Shown here: positions 4,135-45,953 of the stretch, one piece after another
How positions within the stretch are numbered: position 1 is the first letter of the stretch
Layout: each line of letters opens with the position of its first letter
Virus record (IMG/VR): IMGVR_UViG_3300045988_051183
Origin: a virus
Direction: 5' to 3' (one strand)
DNA: 45,953 nt
Made by a program: the position numbers and the translations under genes
The notes under the pieces: model-generated
Told to the model about the DNA's origin: nothing
What the model saw: only the letters and a program-made list of their open reading frames with translations
Databases searched by the model: none

Positions 4135-5605
4135 TGAATTATTTCAGTTGTCCAACGGCAGGTACATTACCTCTGAGGACATAAGCAGAAAGCTGTATTA
4201 CATTAAAGACCACCACCCGGAAACCGCCTACCAGGATGATTCTACGGGGTACTCCTGGGATGAAGCGGGCATGGCTGACCTCTTCTCTGAGTGCTATCAG
4301 AATGATACCCGCTACTGCCCGGAAGCAAAGTCCTGGTACACCTATGAAACTGGCAAGTGGCACAAGGATGTGGGTGCGCTTCTGGTTTCTGCAAAGATTA
4401 AGGAGTTCGTGCGGCTCATGGCTCTGTACTGCGGAGAGATTACCGATGAGGAAAAGCGCAAGCAGTACATGGCTTTTGTGGGAAAGATGGGTGACCGCCG
4501 TTTCCGTGACCGTCTTATGAAGGACGCTGCGGACAGCATGAAGATTGCGGCGGCACAGTTTGACACTCACCCCTATCTGATTAACTGTCTGAATGGCACT
4601 TATGACCTGGAACACATGAAGTTCCGTGAGCATAGATGGGACGATTTCTTGACCATGCAGACCAATTTTGAATACACCTTGCAGGAAGTTACCTGCCCGC
4701 GATGGGAACAGTTCATCAAGGAAGTTACCCAGAACGAAGCAGACAAGGCAGACTACTTGCAGAGGGCTTTGGGCTATTCAATCTTAGGTACAAGCAAGGA
4801 AGAATGTATGTTCATTCTCCATGGTAAGACCACCCGCAACGGCAAAAGTACTATGCTTGACGCTATTCAGCACTTGCTTGGTGACTATTCGACCGTGGCT
4901 CCTGTGGAACTTATCTGCCGTGGTGACCGCCAGAAGAACGCAGAAGCAGCGAACCCGGTACTGGCAAAGCTGAAAGGTAAGCGCATGGTTACCATGAGTG
5001 AGTCAGATACCGCAGGTAAACTGGATGAAGCTACGATTAAGCAGTACACAGGTGGTGAGGACATTACTGCCCGTGAGTTGTATCAGTCAGCTATCACCTT
5101 CAAGCCGCAGTTTACTATGTGGCTGTCCTGTAATGACCTCCCTTCGGTAAAGGATAAATCCCTGTTTGCTTCTGACCGTGTGCGTGTCATTGAGTTCAAT
5201 CGTCACTTCACTGATGAAGAGCAGGATAAGGGACTCAAGGACTACTTTGAAACCCCAGAAGCAATGAGGGGTATATTCACATGGTTAGTGGCGGGCTACT
5301 TCAAGTATATCCGCTTCGGGCTGAAAATGTCCCAAGGTATGCAGAAGGTTATTAAGCAGTATGAGAAGGACAATGACCTGGTACTGCAATTCCTGGAAGA
5401 GAAGTGTGAGCGTAACGCAGAAGGTAAGACCCGTGCGAAGTCCCTCTATGATAACTACAAGATGTGGTGCAAGGGCAATGGGTATTATGTATGCAGCATG
5501 AAGAAATTCAATGCAGAACTGACCGTACACCCGGAATGGTATGCAGACAAGGCAGTTACCCAGGGCGTTTTGTTCTATTATGGAGTAGCTTTAAGGCAAA
5601 ATTAG
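4127..5605 (+). CDS. D5 / P4-type primase-helicase (D5_N plus SF3 helicase domain)
   Basis: Walker A HGKTTRNGKST, Walker B-like RMVTMSESD, then YTGGEDITARELYQS..FTMWLSCNDLP..RVRVIEF. GTG 4127 lies 9 nt after AAGGAGG; the alternative start is ATG 4106. Confidence 0.85.
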   Translation: MSDELFQLSNGRYITSEDISRKLYYIKDHHPETAYQDDSTGYSWDEAGMADLFSECYQNDTRYCPEAKSWYTYETGKWHKDVGALLVSAKIKEFVRLMALYCGEITDEEKRKQYMAFVGKMGDRRFRDRLMKDAADSMKIAAAQFDTHPYLINCLNGTYDLEHMKFREHRWDDFLTMQTNFEYTLQEVTCPRWEQFIKEVTQNEADKADYLQRALGYSILGTSKEECMFILHGKTTRNGKSTMLDAIQHLLGDYSTVAPVELICRGDRQKNAEAANPVLAKLKGKRMVTMSESDTAGKLDEATIKQYTGGEDITARELYQSAITFKPQFTMWLSCNDLPSVKDKSLFASDRVRVIEFNRHFTDEEQDKGLKDYFETPEAMRGIFTWLVAGYFKYIRFGLKMSQGMQKVIKQYEKDNDLVLQFLEEKCERNAEGKTRAKSLYDNYKMWCKGNGYYVCSMKKFNAELTVHPEWYADKAVTQGVLFYYGVALRQN

Positions 5606-5613
5606 GTGGGCAT

Positions 5614-5700
5614 GGTAGGGTAAAATAAGATTTTACTATAAGTTTTCTTAGTACGCGCGTATCTATAAAAACTTACTGTAAAAATTGAATTTGCCCTACC
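5614..5700. repeat. 87-bp AT-rich imperfect palindrome, copy 1
   Basis: Runs ggtagggtaaaat...acgcgcgt...ttgccctacc. It is homologous in inverted orientation to 9342-9428. Confidence 0.85.
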
Positions 5701-5747
5701 AACCTCATGCCAGACAGCAACTCTTACTTGACAGAAAGGAGACAGAA

Positions 5748-5927
5748 ATGGAGTCTTATGTAGAAAGATGGAAGCGGGAGCAGGAGGAAAAACGACTGCT
5801 TGAACAGGAAGAAGCAAAGCAGAAGGAGGTGCAGAAGAGCAATGGCAGAAGAGCAGAAGAAACCCGGAGTAAGAGGGAAAGACAGAAAGCCCAGAAGAAC
5901 AGAAGGGTATCAGAAGAGCAGTCCTAA
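5748..5927 (+). CDS. Lys/Glu/Arg-rich small protein (59 aa), overlapping the 5' part of the terS frame
   Basis: SD AAAGGAGA lies upstream of ATG 5748. The sequence MESYVERWKREQEEKRLLEQEEAKQKE is predicted to be charged and helical. Both frames are open across the CAGAAG repeats. Confidence 0.45.
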   Translation: MESYVERWKREQEEKRLLEQEEAKQKEVQKSNGRRAEETRSKRERQKAQKNRRVSEEQS

Positions 5928-6504
5928 GAATTTGATGAAAGCCAGAGAGAACAGTCCTATCATGCAGGCTCAGAAGGTAGAAATGCCAGAAGGGTACAAT
6001 GCAAAAGTGACTGCCTTTATGATGGAGATTATGCCGAAAGAACCTCTGGACTTGCAGGATGTGGCAGAAATGGAAAGACGGTTCTTGAATTATGTGCAGA
6101 AATGTTCCGAGTGGGATATGAAGGTAGGTAACCAGGCTGCGTATATGGCTATCGGCATTACGAAGGAACAGGCGTGGGAGTGGGAGAACGTCACGAAGGG
6201 GAACCCCGCCCGTACTGACTTTATCAAAAAAGTTCGCCAGTTCTGCGGCGTTTTTCGTGAGGGTCTTATGCAGGACGGCAAGGTGAACCCTGTTACGGGT
6301 ATCTTCTGGCAGAAGAACTATGACGGCATGAAAGACCAGACAGAAATGGTACTCACCCCGAACAATCCTCTGGGAGAGCAGAAGGATATGAAAGCCCTTG
6401 AGCAGAAATACCTTGAGAGTGCCTATGACGGCTCAGAAGCCGCAGAAGGAACTTTTACAGAAATCGCAGAAAGCCCAGAAGGGGCAGAAGGGCAGAAAGA
6501 CTGA
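5800..6504 (+). CDS. terS: Terminase small subunit (start uncertain: 5800, 5842 or 5934)
   Basis: The segment FLNYVQKCSEWDMKVGNQAAYMAIGITKEQAWEW..FIKKVRQFCGVFREGLMQDGKVNPVTGIFWQKNYDGMKDQ follows the usual TerS HTH plus IFxLKNxxGxxD-type layout. Confidence 0.7.
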   Translation: MNRKKQSRRRCRRAMAEEQKKPGVRGKDRKPRRTEGYQKSSPKNLMKARENSPIMQAQKVEMPEGYNAKVTAFMMEIMPKEPLDLQDVAEMERRFLNYVQKCSEWDMKVGNQAAYMAIGITKEQAWEWENVTKGNPARTDFIKKVRQFCGVFREGLMQDGKVNPVTGIFWQKNYDGMKDQTEMVLTPNNPLGEQKDMKALEQKYLESAYDGSEAAEGTFTEIAESPEGAEGQKD

Positions 6505-6534
6505 TTTAAAAAGTCACAGAAGGGGCAGAAGGGC
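6476..6534. repeat. Two copies of the 18-bp direct repeat cagaaggggcagaagggc
   Basis: Exact copies at 6476-6493 and 6517-6534, spanning the terS stop. Confidence 0.9.
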
Positions 6535-6809
6535 GGCAACCCTGCCCGCCTGCTGCCTGCCCTGCGGCAGACCTGCCCGCCCTGGCTGCGGGGTTTCACC
6601 ATGCTTTCAAGGCATGGGACAGGGACAGACCGCCCGCCGCCCGTGGTGCTGTCTTGCTGCCGTGGTGCAGGCGTGGACGCTATGCGCCCATCTGCGCCCC
6701 TCTGCGGGGTTTCTGCCCGTTATGGTATAAGTATAGCCCCGCACGGCTTGCGCCCGTCCTGGGCGGCTCTGCGGGGCTGTGAGGGCATACAAGCAAATAG
6801 ACATAAAAG

Positions 6810-6846
6810 AACCCCGGTGCAGGCTGTGAACCTGTCCGGGGTTTTC
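6810..6846. terminator. Bidirectional intrinsic terminator-like hairpin
   Basis: aaccccgg-N18-ccggggtt, followed by tttt on the + strand and by ttctttta on the - strand. It sits directly after the FtsK-like gene stop. Confidence 0.6.
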
Positions 6847-6851
6847 GTGTG

Positions 6852-7586
6852 TTATAACCAACGCAAGCGGGGGCGGCTGTGGTGCTTCCAATAGTCTACA
6901 AGCCGTTGCACCTCTGCGGGGCTGTACATGGGTATATTATACAGTTGCAAGCCCGCCGGGGTCATATAATAGCCCTGTCCATAACGGGGCAGGGTTTCGC
7001 ACCCTGGCAAGCCTAAAATATTACGGCTGTCTTGCTTGCTGCGGGTTCTGAGTCCTACCCGGCTATCAAAGTTTACTTTTATAGGGGTAGGGATAACAGC
7101 GGATAGCGGGCATTGTGTAGCGGCTATAATATGCACGTTTGCCGCCCTGCCTATCTGCGCAAGGCGTTGTATAAGCGGTTGCACCTGTTTTCTATTGGTT
7201 GTCATCAAGTCCGCAAGTTCGTCTATAATCACATAGACCGCCCCGCCGCTGTAGTTCTTTTCATGGCGGGCTTGCATAGCCCTGTAGCGGCGTTCTGTCG
7301 TGTCAATGGCAAGTTGTAAAGCCTGTACCATGTCCCCAGGTTCACTTGCATACTGTAGCGTATGCGGTAGACGTTTATAGTTAATTAGTTCTACCCGTTT
7401 TGGGTCGATGAATATAAATTGAACGGCGGCGGGGCTGTCTTTCAATGCGGTTGTAATTATGCCGTTTATAACTACACTTTTACCGCTGCCCGTTGCCCCC
7501 GCAACTAATAAGTGCGGTTGATGTAGCATATCCGCATACAGGTTATAATATTGCCCCTGTGGCGTTGTCCATGTCTTTTTAATCAA
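6852..7586 (-). CDS. Stand-alone FtsK/SpoIIIE-family P-loop ATPase (244 aa, no membrane or gamma domain)
   Basis: Walker A GATGSGKS, Walker B VYVIIDELADL, then HIIAATQCP and SRVGLRTRSKQDSRNILG. TTG start lies 8 nt after GGAGGT. Confidence 0.85.
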   Translation of the reverse strand: MIKKTWTTPQGQYYNLYADMLHQPHLLVAGATGSGKSVVINGIITTALKDSPAAVQFIFIDPKRVELINYKRLPHTLQYASEPGDMVQALQLAIDTTERRYRAMQARHEKNYSGGAVYVIIDELADLMTTNRKQVQPLIQRLAQIGRAANVHIIAATQCPLSAVIPTPIKVNFDSRVGLRTRSKQDSRNILGLPGCETLPRYGQGYYMTPAGLQLYNIPMYSPAEVQRLVDYWKHHSRPRLRWL

Positions 7587-7609
7587 TCTTTTATACCTCC
7601 ATCAATAAA

Positions 7610-7641
7610 GCCCCGGCAGGCTGTGCGGCTCTGTCCGGGGC
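7610..7641 (-). terminator. Hairpin (attenuator or terminator) between the 124-aa gene and the FtsK-like gene
   Basis: gccccgg-N18-ccggggc with tttatt following on the minus strand. It is homologous to the hairpin at 6810-6843. Confidence 0.45.
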
Positions 7642-7647
7642 TGTGGT

Positions 7648-8022
7648 TTACTGCAAATAGCTATAATCGTATTTCGTGACGGTTCCCAGGGTTCCCGCTG
7701 TGGGTGCTTCACCTGTGAAGCGGTCAACAGTCCGCACAGGAATATAAAACGCTGCATAGCGCCCCGCCTGGGCTGTAGTACAGTTGTAATACTCAAACGA
7801 ATTAACCTGATTGTTAAAATCGTTTTTAACTCCGATTTCATCAACTACGAATTGCGCCCGGTCTTTTCTATTCCAGTTGGTAGCAACTTCCCACGGGCTA
7901 AACGGGTTAAAATTTGCAGGACATACAAGAACGGTTAAGCCGTTCATGTAAGCGGTGCGGGCTTCCTTTTTATTGATACGCTCAAAAGTAAAGCCCTTAT
8001 TTGTAAAGGTGTATTTGTTCAT
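7648..8022 (-). CDS. Hypothetical protein (124 aa)
   Basis: ORF with a GGAGGT SD. No family was recognised with certainty. Confidence 0.6.
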   Translation of the reverse strand: MNKYTFTNKGFTFERINKKEARTAYMNGLTVLVCPANFNPFSPWEVATNWNRKDRAQFVVDEIGVKNDFNNQVNSFEYYNCTTAQAGRYAAFYIPVRTVDRFTGEAPTAGTLGTVTKYDYSYLQ

Positions 8023-8171
8023 GTTATACCTCCATTTTGTGCATATTGCTATTTATAGGCTGTTTTTCTGTGGTGCAGGTTTGAAAGCCTACATTATACC
8101 CCAGACCCCGCAACCCTCACAGGCTGCGGACGCTTGCGCCCTAACTGGCTATTTATACACGGCGCAACGTG

Positions 8172-8417
8172 TTAAAAGTAAATGAAAGCGGCTGTACTGC
8201 GGGCAGTGATTGCGTATAATGTCCCGGTTTCCTGTCCCTGTAATAAACCGCCGTTTATACCGTACACCCCGGAACTATAACCCAGTTTGTCAAGGTCTTT
8301 TTCCTTTTCTATCAAGGCTTCATATTCTGCGGTTCCGTGGTTTGTAATGTCCACGGCTGCGCCCGTTCTTACAAGAGTTTTTAACTCTTTTTGTGTGTAC
8401 TCTCTCATTACTTGCAC
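8172..8417 (-). CDS. Hypothetical protein (81 aa)
   Basis: ORF overlapping the stop of the upstream gene. No family was recognised. Confidence 0.55.
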   Translation of the reverse strand: MQVMREYTQKELKTLVRTGAAVDITNHGTAEYEALIEKEKDLDKLGYSSGVYGINGGLLQGQETGTLYAITARSTAAFIYF

Positions 8418-8785
8418 CCCCTTACAAGTTCCCTATAAATAAGGGATGTTAAAAGCTGTTCGGCGTTCTGTTCACTGTAGCGGGCTTTTTCCTGTTCGGT
8501 TTCATCAAGGATTTTTCCCAGGTCATCAACTGCGGAACGGTTGTAGTAATAGCAGGTATCAAGGATTGACGGCAACCCCTGCGCCCAATCTGTAAAGCGT
8601 TCCTGTTCGCTCATTCTGCTATATGCGCCCTTTGCGGGCTTTTCGCTGTTGAATACCTCCATAATAACGGCGGCTGTATCCTTGAATGTTTCCGGGGTTT
8701 CTATGCTGTAGTTCTCACCCGTGAACCCCTGCATAATGTAGGCTTGCACGTTCTGCCGTGCCTGTTTGCTGTTTGTTTTTAACAT
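8408..8785 (-). CDS. Hypothetical protein (125 aa), first gene of the minus-strand cassette
   Basis: ORF with a GGAGGT SD, directly downstream of the minus-strand promoter. Confidence 0.6.
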   Translation of the reverse strand: MLKTNSKQARQNVQAYIMQGFTGENYSIETPETFKDTAAVIMEVFNSEKPAKGAYSRMSEQERFTDWAQGLPSILDTCYYYNRSAVDDLGKILDETEQEKARYSEQNAEQLLTSLIYRELVRGCK

Positions 8786-8825
8786 GGTTGTTACCTCCTG
8801 TTTGTTGTACCCTGTCGGGTTGCTA

Positions 8826-8886
8826 TCAAGTTTTATCTTGATTAAAGTATATCAAGATATATCTTTATTGTCAAGATATTTCTTGA
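8826..8886. promoter_or_regulatory. Three TCAAG-N6-CTTGA operator-like inverted repeats overlapping the minus-strand promoter
   Basis: Sites at 8826-8841 and 8871-8886 are perfect. Site 8852-8867 has one mismatch and fills the promoter spacer. Confidence 0.6.
8846..8874 (-). promoter_or_regulatory. Consensus-like sigma-A/sigma-70 promoter for the minus-strand cassette
   Basis: On the minus strand it reads TTGACA (8874-8869), a 17-nt spacer, then TATACT (8851-8846). Confidence 0.65.
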
Positions 8887-9035
8887 AATTCTTTTGACTT
8901 TTTCTCCACGTCCCGCCGCTCTGCCTGTGGTGCAGGCTGTCCCGGTCATCCTGCGGACAGACCCCCGGCGGGGGATATAGACCCCCGGCAGCCGGGGCGG
9001 GTGAGCCTGGAAAATCCCGCAAAAATAAAAAAGAT

Positions 9036-9076
9036 TCAAGATATAACTTGACAAGATAGAACTTTAATGCTATCCT
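9036..9076 (+). promoter_or_regulatory. Promoter of the HTH gene with an overlapping TCAAG-N6-CTTGA operator
   Basis: Operator at 9036-9051, TTGACA at 9048-9053, a 17-nt spacer, then TATCCT at 9071-9076. Confidence 0.5.
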
Positions 9077-9099
9077 TATCTTGAACAGGAGGAAAACGT

Positions 9100-9351
9100 A
9101 TGACTTCAAAAGAACTGATTAAGACTCTGATGACAGAGCATGATATAACGAATGCTGAGATGGCAAAGACTTTGGGCATTACGCAGGCGGCTCTCTGGGA
9201 TAGACTGAATCCGAAGAAGAGCGATAACACTACAGTTGCAAAACTGGGTGATATGTTGAGCGTTATGGGGTATAAAATCGTGGTTGTTCCCGATGAAACA
9301 CCTATCCCCGAAGGTGGATATGAGGTTGGTCAGACAGACATGGTAGGGTAA
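9100..9351 (+). CDS. Small HTH DNA-binding protein (XRE/Cro-like), divergent from the cassette
   Basis: ITNAEMAKTLGITQAALWDRL looks like a helix-turn-helix. AGGAGG SD. The stop codon lies inside palindrome copy 2. Confidence 0.7.
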   Translation: MTSKELIKTLMTEHDITNAEMAKTLGITQAALWDRLNPKKSDNTTVAKLGDMLSVMGYKIVVVPDETPIPEGGYEVGQTDMVG

Positions 9352-9428
9352 AATCGAATTTTTCACTAAGTTTTTATAGTAAAGACTCTACTAAGAAAAC
9401 TTATACAGATTTTATGATTTACCCTACC
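9342..9428. repeat. 87-bp AT-rich imperfect palindrome, copy 2 (inverted relative to copy 1)
   Basis: Runs ggtagggtaaaat...tttaccctacc. Its reverse complement shares the exact blocks tataagttttcttagta and taagtttttatag with copy 1. Confidence 0.85.
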
Positions 9429-9454
9429 ACGCTAAGAGAAAGGATGGTGAAACC

Positions 9455-9607
9455 ATGTTCTATATTTTGTTCTGCTGCTTGTGGTTCCTGTGGTGGTGTA
9501 TTAAATCCTTCTTCTGGCTTTGTGCATGGGTCACCTGGAATATCGTAGTCAGACCTGTGGTATGGTGCTTGTGCCTGCCCTTTAAGTTAATAGGTAACTG
9601 CAAGTAA
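9455..9607 (+). CDS. Possible Trp/Cys-rich hydrophobic peptide (50 aa)
   Basis: Hand translation gives MFYILFCCLWFLWWCIKSFFWLCAWVTWNIVVRPVVWCLCLPFKLIGNCK. The SD is weak (AAAGGA). A T8 tract follows. Confidence 0.3.
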   Translation: MFYILFCCLWFLWWCIKSFFWLCAWVTWNIVVRPVVWCLCLPFKLIGNCK

Positions 9608-9674
9608 GTTGCGGTTTTGTCCAATGGGACTGTCTTAATTGACGGTTCCATTTTTTTTGTTTACGGAGGTATGT

Positions 9675-11342
9675 ATGGATTATAGTAAAATGAAAAGCAG
9701 CATTGACCGGGCTATCTTAAAGAGTCCGCTTGATGTTGCAGCCTATGATGATAAGTTCGCCCTGTGCCGTGACTATGAGGGTGCAGAGTTTCGACTGGCT
9801 CACGAATGGAACCAGGCTTTACAGGAGGAAATCAGAGCAGGGCTGAAACTGGCAGTAGATACCAGGGATTTTAAGACAGCAGAGGAATTTGACAATCTGC
9901 TGTTTCGCTCCCTACTGTTTTGTGCGCCCCATTATTTTGACGCATATTTGCAGGCGGTAGAGTATGGCAAGCCGCTTGACAAGAAGTTCTATCTGCCCCG
10001 CCGTCATTACCTTAGACGATATGTAGAAGGATACCAGGAAGTTCTTGAGGGAAAACTGGACTTTCTGTCCATCTCCATGCCGAAACGATGTGGTAAGTCT
10101 CAGCTTGGTATCAACTTTACGAATATGCTTTCTGGAAAATTCCCAGACCGCTCTACGTTGATGGAGGGTACAGGTGATGACCTTGTTCAGTCTTTCTACA
10201 AAGGTTGCCTTGAGTACATTCAGCAGCCGAATGATTATCATTTTTATGATATTTTCCCGGAGAGCAAACTGGTACAGACCAATGCCGATACGAAGGTCAT
10301 CAATCTTCTGCATAAGTCCCGATTCCCTACTGTCATGTGCCGTTCTATTGACGCACGGCAGGTAGGTCTTTCGGAAGCAACCAACCTTCTCTACCTGGAT
10401 GACTGCGTAGAGGGACGTGAGGAAGCGAAGAATAGACAGCGGCTTGATGACAAGTGGGAGGTCATCTCGGGTGATATTATTGGACGTGCTATTGAGGGTA
10501 CACCTATCGTTATCTGCGGTACACGATATTCTCTGTATGACCCTATCGGTCACTTGCAGGAGGAAATGAGAAAGCAGGGCAAGCGGTGCAAGATTATCGA
10601 AACCCCGGCTCTTGACCCCGTGACGGATGAGAGTAACTTTGAATACATTCGTGAGGGCAGGAAGGTTTTCACCACGCAGTACTTCCGTGACCAGAGAGAA
10701 ATGCTTTCGGCAGAGCAGTTTGAGTCTGAGTTTCAGCAGCAGCCGTTTGAAGCGAAGGGTATTCTTTTCCCGGAAGCGTCCTTGAACCGATACTTTGAAC
10801 TTCCTGTAGACCGTGAACCAGACAGTATTATTGCCGTCTGCGATACTGCGGACAAGGGTGCGGACTATTGCTCTATGCCGATTGCTGCGGTGTACGGAGA
10901 TGAGGTCTACATTGTAGATGTAGTGTTCGATGACTCCCCGCCAGAGGTTACGAAGCCAGAGTGTGCAAAGGCTCTGATGGACAATCTTGTGGTGGCAGGA
11001 ACCTTTGAGTCAAATAATGCAGGTACATACTTTGCCAGGGATGTACAGCAGATTTTGATTGACCGAAAGTATGTCTGCAATATCCGAACGAAGAGGACTA
11101 TCAGCAATAAACAGACCCGTATCGAGTTCGCTTCTGATAACATCATCAAGCATTTTTACTTCAAAGACCCGTCACTCTACGCACGGAACAGTCAGTATGC
11201 CATGTTTATGAAGCAGGTCACAACCTACACCCGGTCTGGTAAAGTGCCACATGATGACGCACCCGACTCTCTTTCTCTGCTTGAGAATGAACTGCGTGGA
11301 CTGGTAGGAGCGAAGGTTGAAGTTTTCAAAAGACCGTGTTAA
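9675..11342 (+). CDS. terL: Terminase large subunit
   Basis: ATPase region PKRCGKSQ and LLYLDDCVEG. The nuclease region CDTADKGADYCSMPIA..IVDVVF..FESNNAG is typical. ATG 9675 follows GGAGG. Confidence 0.9.
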   Translation: MDYSKMKSSIDRAILKSPLDVAAYDDKFALCRDYEGAEFRLAHEWNQALQEEIRAGLKLAVDTRDFKTAEEFDNLLFRSLLFCAPHYFDAYLQAVEYGKPLDKKFYLPRRHYLRRYVEGYQEVLEGKLDFLSISMPKRCGKSQLGINFTNMLSGKFPDRSTLMEGTGDDLVQSFYKGCLEYIQQPNDYHFYDIFPESKLVQTNADTKVINLLHKSRFPTVMCRSIDARQVGLSEATNLLYLDDCVEGREEAKNRQRLDDKWEVISGDIIGRAIEGTPIVICGTRYSLYDPIGHLQEEMRKQGKRCKIIETPALDPVTDESNFEYIREGRKVFTTQYFRDQREMLSAEQFESEFQQQPFEAKGILFPEASLNRYFELPVDREPDSIIAVCDTADKGADYCSMPIAAVYGDEVYIVDVVFDDSPPEVTKPECAKALMDNLVVAGTFESNNAGTYFARDVQQILIDRKYVCNIRTKRTISNKQTRIEFASDNIIKHFYFKDPSLYARNSQYAMFMKQVTTYTRSGKVPHDDAPDSLSLLENELRGLVGAKVEVFKRPC

Positions 11343-44818: not shown

Positions 44819-45953
44819 GAAGGACGGCACGATTGAGCAGTTTGACGGTCAGAAGATTGTCAACGCAGTCAGTAAGTCTGCCGCCCGTGCAATGATTGAA
44901 TTGGACGATACCCAGTACCATGAGATTGTATCTAAGGTCATGGCTATTGTCACTGAGCGTTTCCCGGAACAGGTTCACGTTGCGGATATGCACAACATTG
45001 TGGAGCAGGTTCTTGATGAGGTCAACCCGAAGATTGCAAAGTCTTACCGGGATTACCGAAACTTCAAGAAGGATTTCGTTCACATTATGGATGAGGTCTA
45101 TCAGAAATCTCAGTCCATTCGTTTTCTGGGCGATAAGGAGAACGCAAACACAGACTCCACCCTGGTTGCCACGAAGCGTTGTCTGATTTTCAACGAACTG
45201 AACAAGCGGCTGTACCGCAAGTTCTTTATGACCAATGATGAGTTGCAGGCTTGTAAGGACGGATTCATTTATATCCATGACCAGTCAGCCCGCCTTGATA
45301 CTATGAACTGCTGTCTGTGTGACATTTCCTCTATTATGAGCGGCGGCTTTGAGATGGGCAACGTCTGGTACAATGAGCCGAAAACTCTTGATACCGCCTT
45401 TGATGTTCTGGGAGATATTATCCTGGCTACAGCGTCACAGCAGTACGGCGGCTTCACTGTCCCGGAGGTAGACAAGATTCTGGCTCCGTATGCAGAGAAG
45501 TCCTACAAGAAGTACTGCGCTGAGTACATGGAAATCCGCAATCAGCAGACCTTCACCCAGGACGCAAAGGACTGGGCTATGAGTAAAGTGCAGCGTGATT
45601 TTGAGCAGGGCTTCCAGGGTATTGAGATGAAGCTGAACACTGTGGGTTCTTCCCGTGGTGACTATCCGTTCATCACTATGACCTTCGGTCTGGCTATTGA
45701 CGTGTTCGGCAAGATGGCAAGCAAGACCTTCCTCAAGGTTCACATGGAGGGCGAAGGTAAGCCGGGATTCAAAAAGCCCGTGCTGTTCCCGAAACTGGTT
45801 TTCCTCTACGATGAGAGCATTCACGGTGAGGGCGGCTTCAACGAAGATGTGTTTGAAGCAGGCATTGATTGCAGCAGCAAGACCATGTATCCCGACTGGC
45901 TGTCCCTTACGGGTGACGGCTATGTGGCTGAGATGTACAAGAAGTATGGCAGA
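44805..45953 (+). CDS. nrdD: Anaerobic ribonucleoside-triphosphate reductase, N-terminal part (runs off the window end; continues at 120..1097)
   Basis: Hand translation gives an ATP-cone N-terminus MKVIKKDGTIEQFDGQKIVNAVSKSAARA. There is no stop before 45953. It is absent from the ORF track because it is open-ended. Confidence 0.9.
   Translation, partial: MKVIKKDGTIEQFDGQKIVNAVSKSAARAMIELDDTQYHEIVSKVMAIVTERFPEQVHVADMHNIVEQVLDEVNPKIAKSYRDYRNFKKDFVHIMDEVYQKSQSIRFLGDKENANTDSTLVATKRCLIFNELNKRLYRKFFMTNDELQACKDGFIYIHDQSARLDTMNCCLCDISSIMSGGFEMGNVWYNEPKTLDTAFDVLGDIILATASQQYGGFTVPEVDKILAPYAEKSYKKYCAEYMEIRNQQTFTQDAKDWAMSKVQRDFEQGFQGIEMKLNTVGSSRGDYPFITMTFGLAIDVFGKMASKTFLKVHMEGEGKPGFKKPVLFPKLVFLYDESIHGEGGFNEDVFEAGIDCSSKTMYPDWLSLTGDGYVAEMYKKYGR
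45835..45953. repeat. Terminal direct repeat, right copy
   Basis: Exact 119-nt identity with 1-119. Confidence 0.95.

Follow-up and report, generated by a model that had tools for sequence, protein, structure and literature searches.

A conserved antisense accessory operon with a mini-FtsK ATPase and a predicted pistol ribozyme between terS and terL in a lineage of Lachnospiraceae phages

Gene content and conservation of the terS-terL interval

The IMG/VR virus record IMGVR_UViG_3300045988_051183 is a DNA stretch of 45,953 nucleotides (nt), here called the window, and the present analysis concerns its region 6505-9351, which lies between the genes for the small (terS) and the large (terL) terminase subunit. 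The two ends of the window are identical (positions 1-119 and 45835-45953, an exact 119-nt overlap), which gives a circularly closed assembly of 45,834 bp; a relative of 45,957 bp was opened at another breakpoint. An initial annotation, made from the sequence alone, had described the region as a GC-rich, self-regulated island inserted between the two terminase genes. As it had reported, terS (ending at 6504) and terL (starting at 9675) are separated, four open reading frames (ORFs) of 125, 81, 124 and 244 amino acids (aa) lie on the minus strand, and an 83-aa helix-turn-helix (HTH) gene diverges from them at 9100-9351 on the plus strand. In the order of transcription the minus-strand genes are p125 (8408-8785, cluster c14) and p81 (8172-8417, cluster c11), which make up cassette 1, then p124 (7648-8022, cluster c2), which makes up cassette 2, and finally the gene at 6852-7586, the conserved anchor of the locus, which encodes a soluble FtsK/SpoIIIE beta-domain ATPase that we call mini-FtsK.

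At least 461 terL relatives were found in IMG/VR, and every one with enough upstream DNA has the order primase, terS, antiparallel ATPase, variable slot, terL, portal. The slot between the ATPase gene and terL is 1.7-3.7 kb long among the relatives. The ATPase gene keeps its place between terS and terL across relatives with terL 78-100% identical, and holds the same position in distant phages whose terL is 32-38%, portal 30-51% and ATPase 60-66% identical. An empty site, with terS and terL adjacent and the ATPase missing, was not observed among the relatives with enough flanking DNA. The initial annotation had allowed that an insertion would be disproved by close relatives all carrying the block, and for the ATPase this is what was found in every relative with enough flank. 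We concluded that the block is a fixed, conserved accessory operon of the lineage, lying antisense in a terS-terL split, and is neither an insertion nor an assembly artefact.

Base composition was compared with that of 50 backbone genes in a genome of 47.1% GC, whose other intergenic regions have 37-53% GC. The five cassette genes showed z-scores of -0.96 to +0.91 for GC and of -1.48 to +0.52 for GC at third codon positions (GC3). The description of the region as GC-rich thus holds for the non-coding gap of about 350 nt next to terS (6505-6851; 347 nt, 63.7% GC) but not for the genes, whose coding GC and GC3 stay within about 1.5 standard deviations of the backbone. The codon preference of the ATPase gene is atypical (codon adaptation index-like z = -3.2), with A-ending codons exceeding T-ending ones; this A3/T3 swap mirrors the plus-strand genes and fits a long residence on the minus strand. 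In the closest relatives (L008 and L011) the synonymous divergence (dS) of the ATPase gene was 0.49-0.73, compared with 0.05-0.27 for terL, portal and primase, which indicates that ATPase alleles have been exchanged between otherwise near-identical phages.

These results bear on the possibility that the block came in recently as foreign DNA, a GC-rich island or moron perhaps from a conjugative element, and split a terS and terL that are normally adjacent; we consider this extremely unlikely. The minus-strand orientation with its own promoter and terminator fits the definition of a moron, and the codon preference and the raised dS of the ATPase would also fit a foreign origin. However, the ATPase is present in all relatives with enough flank, the genes do not stand out in coding GC or GC3, conservation extends to the GC-rich gap, and the codon oddity is the swap expected on the other strand; moreover, terS and terL each have their own copy of an 87-nt element (see below), which fits an old arrangement. 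A conjugative or plasmid origin, which had also been entertained, found no support, as no plasmid homologue of the ATPase reached 60% identity and the top-listed ones resemble cellular ftsK on large replicons.

The 244-aa ATPase had been described as a stand-alone FtsK-type protein without membrane and gamma domains, and profile and structure comparisons agree with this. It matched PF01580 (FtsK_SpoIIIE) with 117.8 bits (cut-off 24; E 6e-34), phrog_1358 with an E of 5e-63 and phrog_3551 with 2e-33; the latter two are families of 'FtsK/SpoIIIE-like protein' found in mycobacteriophage cluster J and many Bacillus phages. Compared with the Pseudomonas aeruginosa and Escherichia coli motors (2IUS, 2IUT, 2IUU), the beta motor aligns end to end, residues 17-240 of the ATPase corresponding to the beta (RecA-like) domain only (2IUS chain residues 161-424). 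The N-terminal membrane part and linker are missing, since the beta match begins after 16 residues; there are no query residues opposite 2IUS 1-160, the alpha domain; and the alignment stops where the beta domain ends, leaving out the gamma winged helix, the reader of KOPS/SRS. A hidden Markov model of the gamma domain, built from three sequences, found no match in the six frames of the window (best E 0.64). The protein shares Walker A (GxxGxGK[ST]), Walker B (hhhhDE) and ATQxP-type motifs with FtsK/SpoIIIE; across 31 sequences, the most distant at 37% identity, no variation was seen at G30, G35, K36, S37, D122 and E123. Scores against the NCBIfam models of full-length proteins were far below the cut-offs (FtsK NF007615, 135 bits against 1566; TraB NF041214, 22.6 against 800). 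By these sequence comparisons the ATPase belongs to the FtsK/SpoIIIE superfamily without being orthologous to FtsK.

The ATPase family is very large and consists of stand-alone proteins of 230-320 aa; homologues occur in 365 GenBank phage records, all below 60% identity. The ratio of nonsynonymous to synonymous change (omega) is 0.08-0.17, indicating purifying selection. Over the whole beta domain the protein is about 40% identical to cellular FtsK motors, and the motifs that bear the oligomer interface are all kept. This identity, together with the PHROG category of the family ('moron, auxiliary metabolic gene and host takeover'), would suit a role in which the beta-only ATPase co-assembles with the host FtsK/SpoIIIE hexamer and poisons or redirects it, blocking division or sporulation. 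We regard such a takeover as very unlikely, because the alpha domain, which contributes to FtsK ring assembly, is missing, and because Oribacterium and Moryella, whose genomes hold near-identical ATPases (see below), are not known to form spores.

Pistol ribozyme, cassette junctions and hairpins

Three features of the locus had been overlooked by the initial annotation, namely a pistol self-cleaving ribozyme, a second GC-rich block at 8896-9010 and two inverted 87-nt elements. The ribozyme was assigned to 8101-8172 on the minus strand by Rfam family RF02679, a custom model and covariation, with a predicted cut at G8106/U8105. It starts at A8172, where the p81 stop codon ends, so that the two share this base; from the predicted cut to the p124 start codon there are 83 nt. 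A permissive Rfam scan placed RF02679 at 8113-8172 on the minus strand with 31.5 bits against a gathering score of 34.5 (E 3e-4 for 301 nt); owing to the unusual length of P3, the 3' part was lost from the local alignment. The predicted structure consists of P1 (ACACG/CGUGU), whose loop UUGCGC pairs perfectly with GCGCAA to form the pseudoknot, P2 (CCAG/CUGG), an AGCGU core, a AUAAAUAG linker, P3 (CCGCAGCC/GGUUGCGG) and a G-U junction between P3 and P2. The pistol class was reportedly described by Weinberg et al. in 2015. With RF02679 the element shares P1, the P1-loop pseudoknot, P2, P3, the AUAAAUA linker, the G/U junction and the context of a Firmicutes phage; it differs in a P3 of 8 bp with a 6-nt loop and in falling 3 bits under the gathering score in local mode. 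These features and the junction rule are those given by Harris et al. 2015, and pistol RNAs have been noted near phage genes (PMC4604425).

Copies above the Rfam threshold were found in 11 of 14 short relatives, with 45.8-64.8 bits. A custom model built from 21 variants was used to scan 78 sequences, comprising the window and its relatives, and it recovered 42 copies in 39 of them, all on the ATPase strand and always at cassette junctions; the window copy scored 74.7 bits over the full length of the model. Across the 21 aligned sequences, the window among them, neither the AUAAAUAG linker nor the AGCGU core varies, and the G-U junction is kept. The paired positions are filled by pairing bases in 99.1% of cells, and 14 of 21 pairs are compensatory, involving all four helices including the pseudoknot. 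None of 500 shuffles equalled this value, and slid controls reached 24-46%. By structure and covariation, then, the element is a pistol ribozyme. Among the relatives that have no pistol, no other Rfam family was found in its place.

The position of the ribozyme is precise. In all but two of 36 junctions it begins a few nt from the upstream stop codon, although the upstream genes belong to seven families, and the genes on its 3' side come from at least nine different families and start 11-128 nt downstream. In L105 and L035 there are two pistol copies per operon, one after each cassette, so that the element appears as a repeated inter-cassette spacer. What sets the present copies apart is thus their placement, on the upstream stop codon and at the junctions of shuffled cassettes within one operon. 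The cause of the association between ribozymes and phage genes has been called undetermined, and processing of polycistronic transcripts has merely been suggested (PMC6765202, PMC10085705).

The three small proteins gave no Pfam or NCBIfam match, and among PHROGs only p125 matched (phrog_11100, 7e-8). AlphaFold2 (AF2) models of p125, an all-helical protein, and p124, an alpha/beta protein, had pLDDT values of 84 and 87, respectively. Neither model found a fold match in the PDB (E > 1), and p125 matched uncharacterised phage proteins only (BFVD; TM 0.7-0.75). p81 was defined as an ORF and by its cluster assignment. For the small proteins PADLOC-DB yielded a single, non-significant match, that of p124 to PD-Lambda-5_A (E 0.037).

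The initial annotation had treated the four minus-strand genes as one cassette, and this did not hold. In the relatives the promoter-proximal minus-strand position is taken by p125 and p81 (c14 and c11), by c3 or by c6, and the ATPase-adjacent position by p124 (c2), c16, c19, c38, c46, c55 or c59. The p125-p81 pair and p124 are exchanged independently and may be present or absent, and between the alternative families no hidden homology was detected (hhalign probabilities <3%). Sharp breakpoints in pairwise identity fall at O1 (~8825), the leftmost operator of the regulatory region described below, at the 5' end of the ribozyme (8172), at ~8043, just before the p124 start, and at 7580-7640, where the hairpin and the ribosome-binding site (RBS) of the ATPase gene lie. 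From this pattern in the sequences we concluded that operator block, ribozyme and hairpin are conserved joints between exchanged cassettes.

That the block might be a moron had also been proposed, and this proved to be partly so: the small genes are cargo-like, come and go among relatives and act as morons, but the ATPase and the HTH platform are fixed in the lineage and do not. Like phage morons, the unit has its own sigma-70 promoter and intrinsic terminators and runs against the flanking late genes; unlike them, it is a multi-gene unit with a lineage-fixed ATPase and regulatory platform and with predicted internal RNA processing and attenuation. Downstream of the HTH gene the plus-strand slot of relatives holds genes for Bro-N, an Mrr_cat nuclease with transmembrane (TM) segments, a resolvase, DUF5067 lipoproteins and TM2.

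The hairpin that had been noticed before the ATPase gene was located at 7609-7643 on the minus strand, 9 nt before the ATPase RBS; it has a folding energy of -26.4 kcal/mol (z = -3.2) and is followed by UUUAUU. All 21 clade representatives examined have a GC-rich hairpin with a U-rich run in the interval from the stop codon of the preceding gene to the ATPase RBS, with differing stems, and no promoter-like site lies between the hairpin 7609-7643 and the ATPase gene. From its sequence we read this hairpin as an attenuator or internal terminator. The leftward operon ends at a predicted intrinsic terminator at 6811-6843 (minus strand), a hairpin followed by UUCUUUUAU (z = -3.3), whose stem is nearly identical in relatives where the ATPase is only 74-79% identical.

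Regulatory region and non-coding elements

The unit had been said to possess its own switch, and the HTH gene, a consensus-like promoter and four palindromic operators were all confirmed at the sequence level. The leftward promoter P_L (TTGACA-17-TATACT with an upstream TG; minus strand 8874-8846, -35 at 8874-8869 and -10 at 8851-8846) agrees with the consensus at 11 of 12 positions and is the best promoter-like site in 5500-10000. The palindrome TCAAGATATnTCTTGA occurs in four copies, at 8826, 8852, 8871 and 9036. The first three (O1-O3, 8826-8886) overlap P_L, and the fourth (O4, 9036-9076, plus strand) overlaps the -35 of the rightward promoter P_R (TTGACA-17-TATCCT with an upstream A-tract). 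The 83-aa HTH protein (HTH_37; phrog_1468, 'transcriptional repressor') is presumed to repress P_L and to regulate its own synthesis. An HTH-family ORF occupies this slot in 66 loci. In the closest clade the HTH gene, both promoters, the four operators and the GC-rich block between the promoters are almost identical, and homology breaks a few bases left of O1, where differing first cassettes attach. Clades with another HTH (36-71% identity) still keep three operators over P_L and one over P_R, and the palindrome follows the type of HTH, being TCAAGTGTTTTATTGA in L010 and L018 and AATACATTTTTGTATT in L056. This covariation of operator and HTH is the best available evidence that the HTH protein may bind these sites. 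A serine integrase and a cI-like repressor are encoded elsewhere, at 30.5-32.5 kb of the window, so the cassette region is a second, separate regulatory unit.

The block between the two divergent promoters (8896-9010) is 70% GC and contains two palindromic hairpins, CCCCCGGCGGGGG and CCCCGGCAGCCGGGG, followed by the A-tract upstream of P_R. It is kept in all clades, and in L011 a compensatory change from CCCCGG/CCGGGG to CCCAGG/CCTGGG was seen; the folding of the block is no better than that of shuffled sequences. Three of the four CCCGG...CCGGG-type hairpins in the genome fall in the region studied here. An 18-nt inverted match between 6576-6593 and 8984-9001 was judged to be a chance resemblance of two GC-rich tracts.

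The GC-rich gap between terS and the ATPase gene contains 10-nt phased repeats, gave folding z-scores of -3.5 and -4.3, and has a GC fraction of 0.58-0.68 in most relatives and clades. At 6683-6706 and the homologous positions of L001-L018, the 10-nt tandem GCGCCCMTCT occurs in 1-3 copies among near-identical relatives, and L018 has an 85-nt deletion within the gap. In a distant relative the gap (L078:2703-3208) is AT-rich (39% GC), four TCTGAGAWTYTCAGA palindromes replacing the GC-rich repeats; L026-28 and L062 deviate as well, so that neither GC-richness nor repeats are universal. Two other candidates in the gap were rejected: a conserved GGGCATAA motif turned out to be the complement of the U-tract side of the leftward terminator, and a small RNA (sRNA) starting from a TGnTATAAG box at ~6720 had nothing beyond sequence resemblance in its favour. 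The GC-rich gap is a candidate packaging (pac) site, replication origin (ori) or loading site.

Next to the gap, eight copies of CAGAARG are clustered at 6379-6533 on the plus strand, across the terS stop codon and with two copies past it. The cluster is read in two frames, and other clades have similar clusters where terS ends; it may be a signal related to pac or may simply result from a low-complexity tail. A KOPS/SRS-like polar motif was considered, as CAGAARG occurs 37 times on the plus and 7 times on the minus strand, but was rejected since other purine-rich 7-mers are similarly skewed. Outside the local cluster the skew is accounted for by the purine-rich coding strands. Thirteen of the 37 plus-strand copies lie in or just after terS, and the local cluster alone is notable.

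The position of the ATPase beside this gap raises the possibility that it is a cis-acting factor for packaging initiation, concatemer processing or replication that loads at the GC gap, the small genes being passengers. The ATPase is convergent with terS and adjoins a non-coding gap in all clades despite differing terL and portal families, the gap carries the CAGAARG cluster and phased repeats of varying copy number, and phrog_2666, labelled 'terminase large subunit', matches the ATPase at 2e-14. Streptomyces TraB loads at clt repeats and FtsK at KOPS. A precedent for recruiting FtsK parts to packaging is the fusion of FtsK_gamma to terS in Bacillus phages Sam46 and Sam112 (PMC8190038). In TraB with clt and in these fusions, as here, an FtsK-family component adjoins short direct repeats or packaging genes. 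However, TraB, whose C-terminal winged helix binds 8-bp repeats beside its gene, and the Sam46 terS both possess a DNA-reading winged helix, and neither a gamma nor another DNA-reading domain was found in the ATPase, in terS or in the rest of the window. Furthermore, the ATPase gene runs opposite to the late genes, under a host-type promoter with a predicted repressor and behind a predicted attenuator, the classical set of terS, terL and portal is already complete, the CAGAARG skew has the explanation given above, and the gap features are not universal. We therefore judge a cis-acting role distinctly unlikely.

An 87-nt palindromic element is present in two inverted copies, copy A at 5614-5700, between the D5-type primase gene and terS, and copy B at 9342-9428, upstream of terL. 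The pattern of the element hits exactly two loci in the window and none in shuffled sequences, and both copies recur in many clades. The element is built of outer GGTAGGGTA arms, sometimes doubled, and inner TGnTATAAG-like boxes. Copy B can form a hairpin of -30.4 kcal/mol (z = -7.1), and a weak match to the sRNA SpF43 (23 bits against 70) covers 9336-9425. A structured RNA was nevertheless rejected, because pairing past the 9-bp outer arms is lost in some clades; more likely the element is a protein-binding palindrome at the DNA level with -10-like boxes, a candidate late promoter or regulator site. An invertible segment between the inverted copies was likewise rejected, as the orientation is the same in all >60 independent assemblies. 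With one upstream copy for terS and another for terL, the element is in keeping with packaging genes that were separated long ago and have stayed so.

The terS gene (5800-6504, plus strand) lies downstream of the D5-type primase gene. The window terS has no Pfam match and a single profile match, phrog_606 at 7e-5; five of 15 members of its family match PF16677 (GP3_package), with E values down to 1e-9, and on these family matches terS is a P22 gp3-like small terminase at the family level. Its true start may be an ATG about 14 codons further in, the gene call of a relative being 221 aa. The terL gene (9675-11342, plus strand; phrog_38, 2e-46) has an RBS and ATG at 9675, the call of a relative being 555 aa, and is followed by an SPP1-type portal gene, which completes a classical terS/terL/portal set. 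Directly before the terL RBS lies a 12-bp hairpin followed by T8 (9623-9652, plus strand; z = -3.2). This hairpin would stop transcripts from the HTH gene, in which case terL would need read-through or a separate late promoter.

Host lineage and proposed function

Near-identical ATPases were found in prophages within large contigs of Oribacterium sp., Moryella indoligenes and an uncultured Lachnospiraceae genome, and no nucleotide-level relative of the window was found among GenBank phages. The phage belongs to a large family of temperate, pac-type Lachnospiraceae gut siphophages. Four contigs of this phage type (L164, L166, L170 and L171; 24-45 kb, two of them genome-sized at 42-45 kb) are filed under Bacteroidaceae/Bacteroides metagenome-assembled genomes; they are probably mis-binned, the integrated copies being in Lachnospiraceae. 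The early region of a close relative (L241:15732-20020) has genes for the anaerobic ribonucleotide reductase NrdD and its radical-SAM activase, for MazG and for a PAPS-reductase-like protein.

Taking these results together, we propose, with a probability of roughly 55%, that the block is a conserved and insulated accessory operon, gated by its repressor and punctuated by a ribozyme, which is expressed in graded amounts and has a role in phage-host or phage-phage conflict. In this model the HTH protein would repress P_L through O1-O3 and limit its own synthesis through O4, and the operon would fire mainly when repressor is scarce, for example just after DNA entry. The leftward transcript would carry cassette 1 first, then p124 and the ATPase gene last. 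After cleavage the cassette-1 mRNA would end in the folded, compact ribozyme and a cyclic phosphate, and the p124-ATPase mRNA would begin with a 5'-OH. Such a 5'-OH can direct RNase J1 to degrade an mRNA in Firmicutes, as for glmS. The hairpin and its U-tract would then pass only read-through transcripts to the ATPase gene, so that expression would fall stepwise, being highest for cassette 1, lower past the ribozyme cut and lowest for the ATPase. Operator block, ribozyme and hairpin might double as recombination linkers, at which new cassettes are swapped in and the ATPase is retained. In this view the ATPase would be a hexameric, DNA-dependent motor present in few copies, and the role of fast-evolving effectors or adaptors would fall to the variable small proteins.

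The weakest step in this proposal is the function. We infer a conflict module, serving counter-defence, establishment or exclusion, because the small proteins are exchanged rapidly and have no matching fold, because the promoter is strong and self-repressed, and because the neighbours are morons. In its sequence architecture the locus, whose HTH protein is a presumed autorepressor, resembles acr-aca loci, which have a strong promoter under the inverted-repeat operators of a small HTH autorepressor and combine a conserved regulator with fast-exchanged small proteins; no Acr or Aca homology was found for it.

Several points weigh against the proposal. HTH repression, ribozyme cleavage in vivo and attenuation by the hairpin are all inferred from sequence. 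The window ribozyme has an unusually long P3 and, when aligned in the default local mode, does not reach the Rfam gathering score, and about half of the relatives have no ribozyme, so cleavage is not essential to the unit. Neither PADLOC nor structure searches tied the small proteins or the ATPase to a defence or anti-defence family. Known acr-aca regulators are co-transcribed downstream of their cargo, whereas here the HTH gene is divergent and a conserved ATPase gene ends the operon. The ATPase is kept while all its partners vary, and could be functionally unrelated to them. Finally, the constant link to terS and the repeat-rich gap are equally compatible with a role in DNA packaging or replication.

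A further explanation, which we hold to be rather unlikely, is that the unit is a defence or superinfection-exclusion system expressed from the prophage, in which mini-FtsK would work on foreign DNA entering the cell, with the variable small proteins for sensing or for specificity. It agrees with a unit that lies opposite the lytic strand with a host-type promoter and terminators of its own, with neighbouring slot genes in relatives that are typical lysogenic-conversion morons, and with a conserved core and variable partners as in modular defence systems. In PADLOC the ATPase matched SspH (4e-28), mad8 (4e-24) and HerA, but these matches cover the generic P-loop domain only, and no partner protein matches. 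In addition, very little ATPase would be expected behind an attenuator and a ribozyme. The promoter of the HTH gene is also of host type and three operators cover P_L, which means that P_L should be kept shut in a lysogen that makes the HTH protein; for this reason we favour early counter-defence or establishment over defence of the lysogen.

We give some, though limited, credence to a variant in which the pistol ribozyme is the standard inter-cassette junction in this abundant group of gut phages, uncoupling the stability of the cistrons at the RNA level and serving as a recombination linker at the DNA level. The array as a whole would feed a conserved, throttled, soluble mini-FtsK, a phage tool not recognised before, that would act in conflict or in pac/ori handling at the GC-rich repeats. 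If this is so, a bacterial pistol ribozyme would for the first time have a defined biological role.

For annotators, a split of terS and terL with an antisense block between them is a fixed trait of this lineage. The ATPase has thousands of member sequences across human-gut and rumen metagenomes, and the locus bears on the role of stand-alone FtsK-like ATPases in hundreds of phages and on the clustering of ribozymes by phage genes. As cultured Oribacterium and Moryella carry prophage copies, cultivable lysogens put both the ATPase and the ribozyme questions within experimental reach. The operon is a new arrangement of known parts, and it offers a precise and testable genetic context for a bacterial self-cleaving ribozyme.

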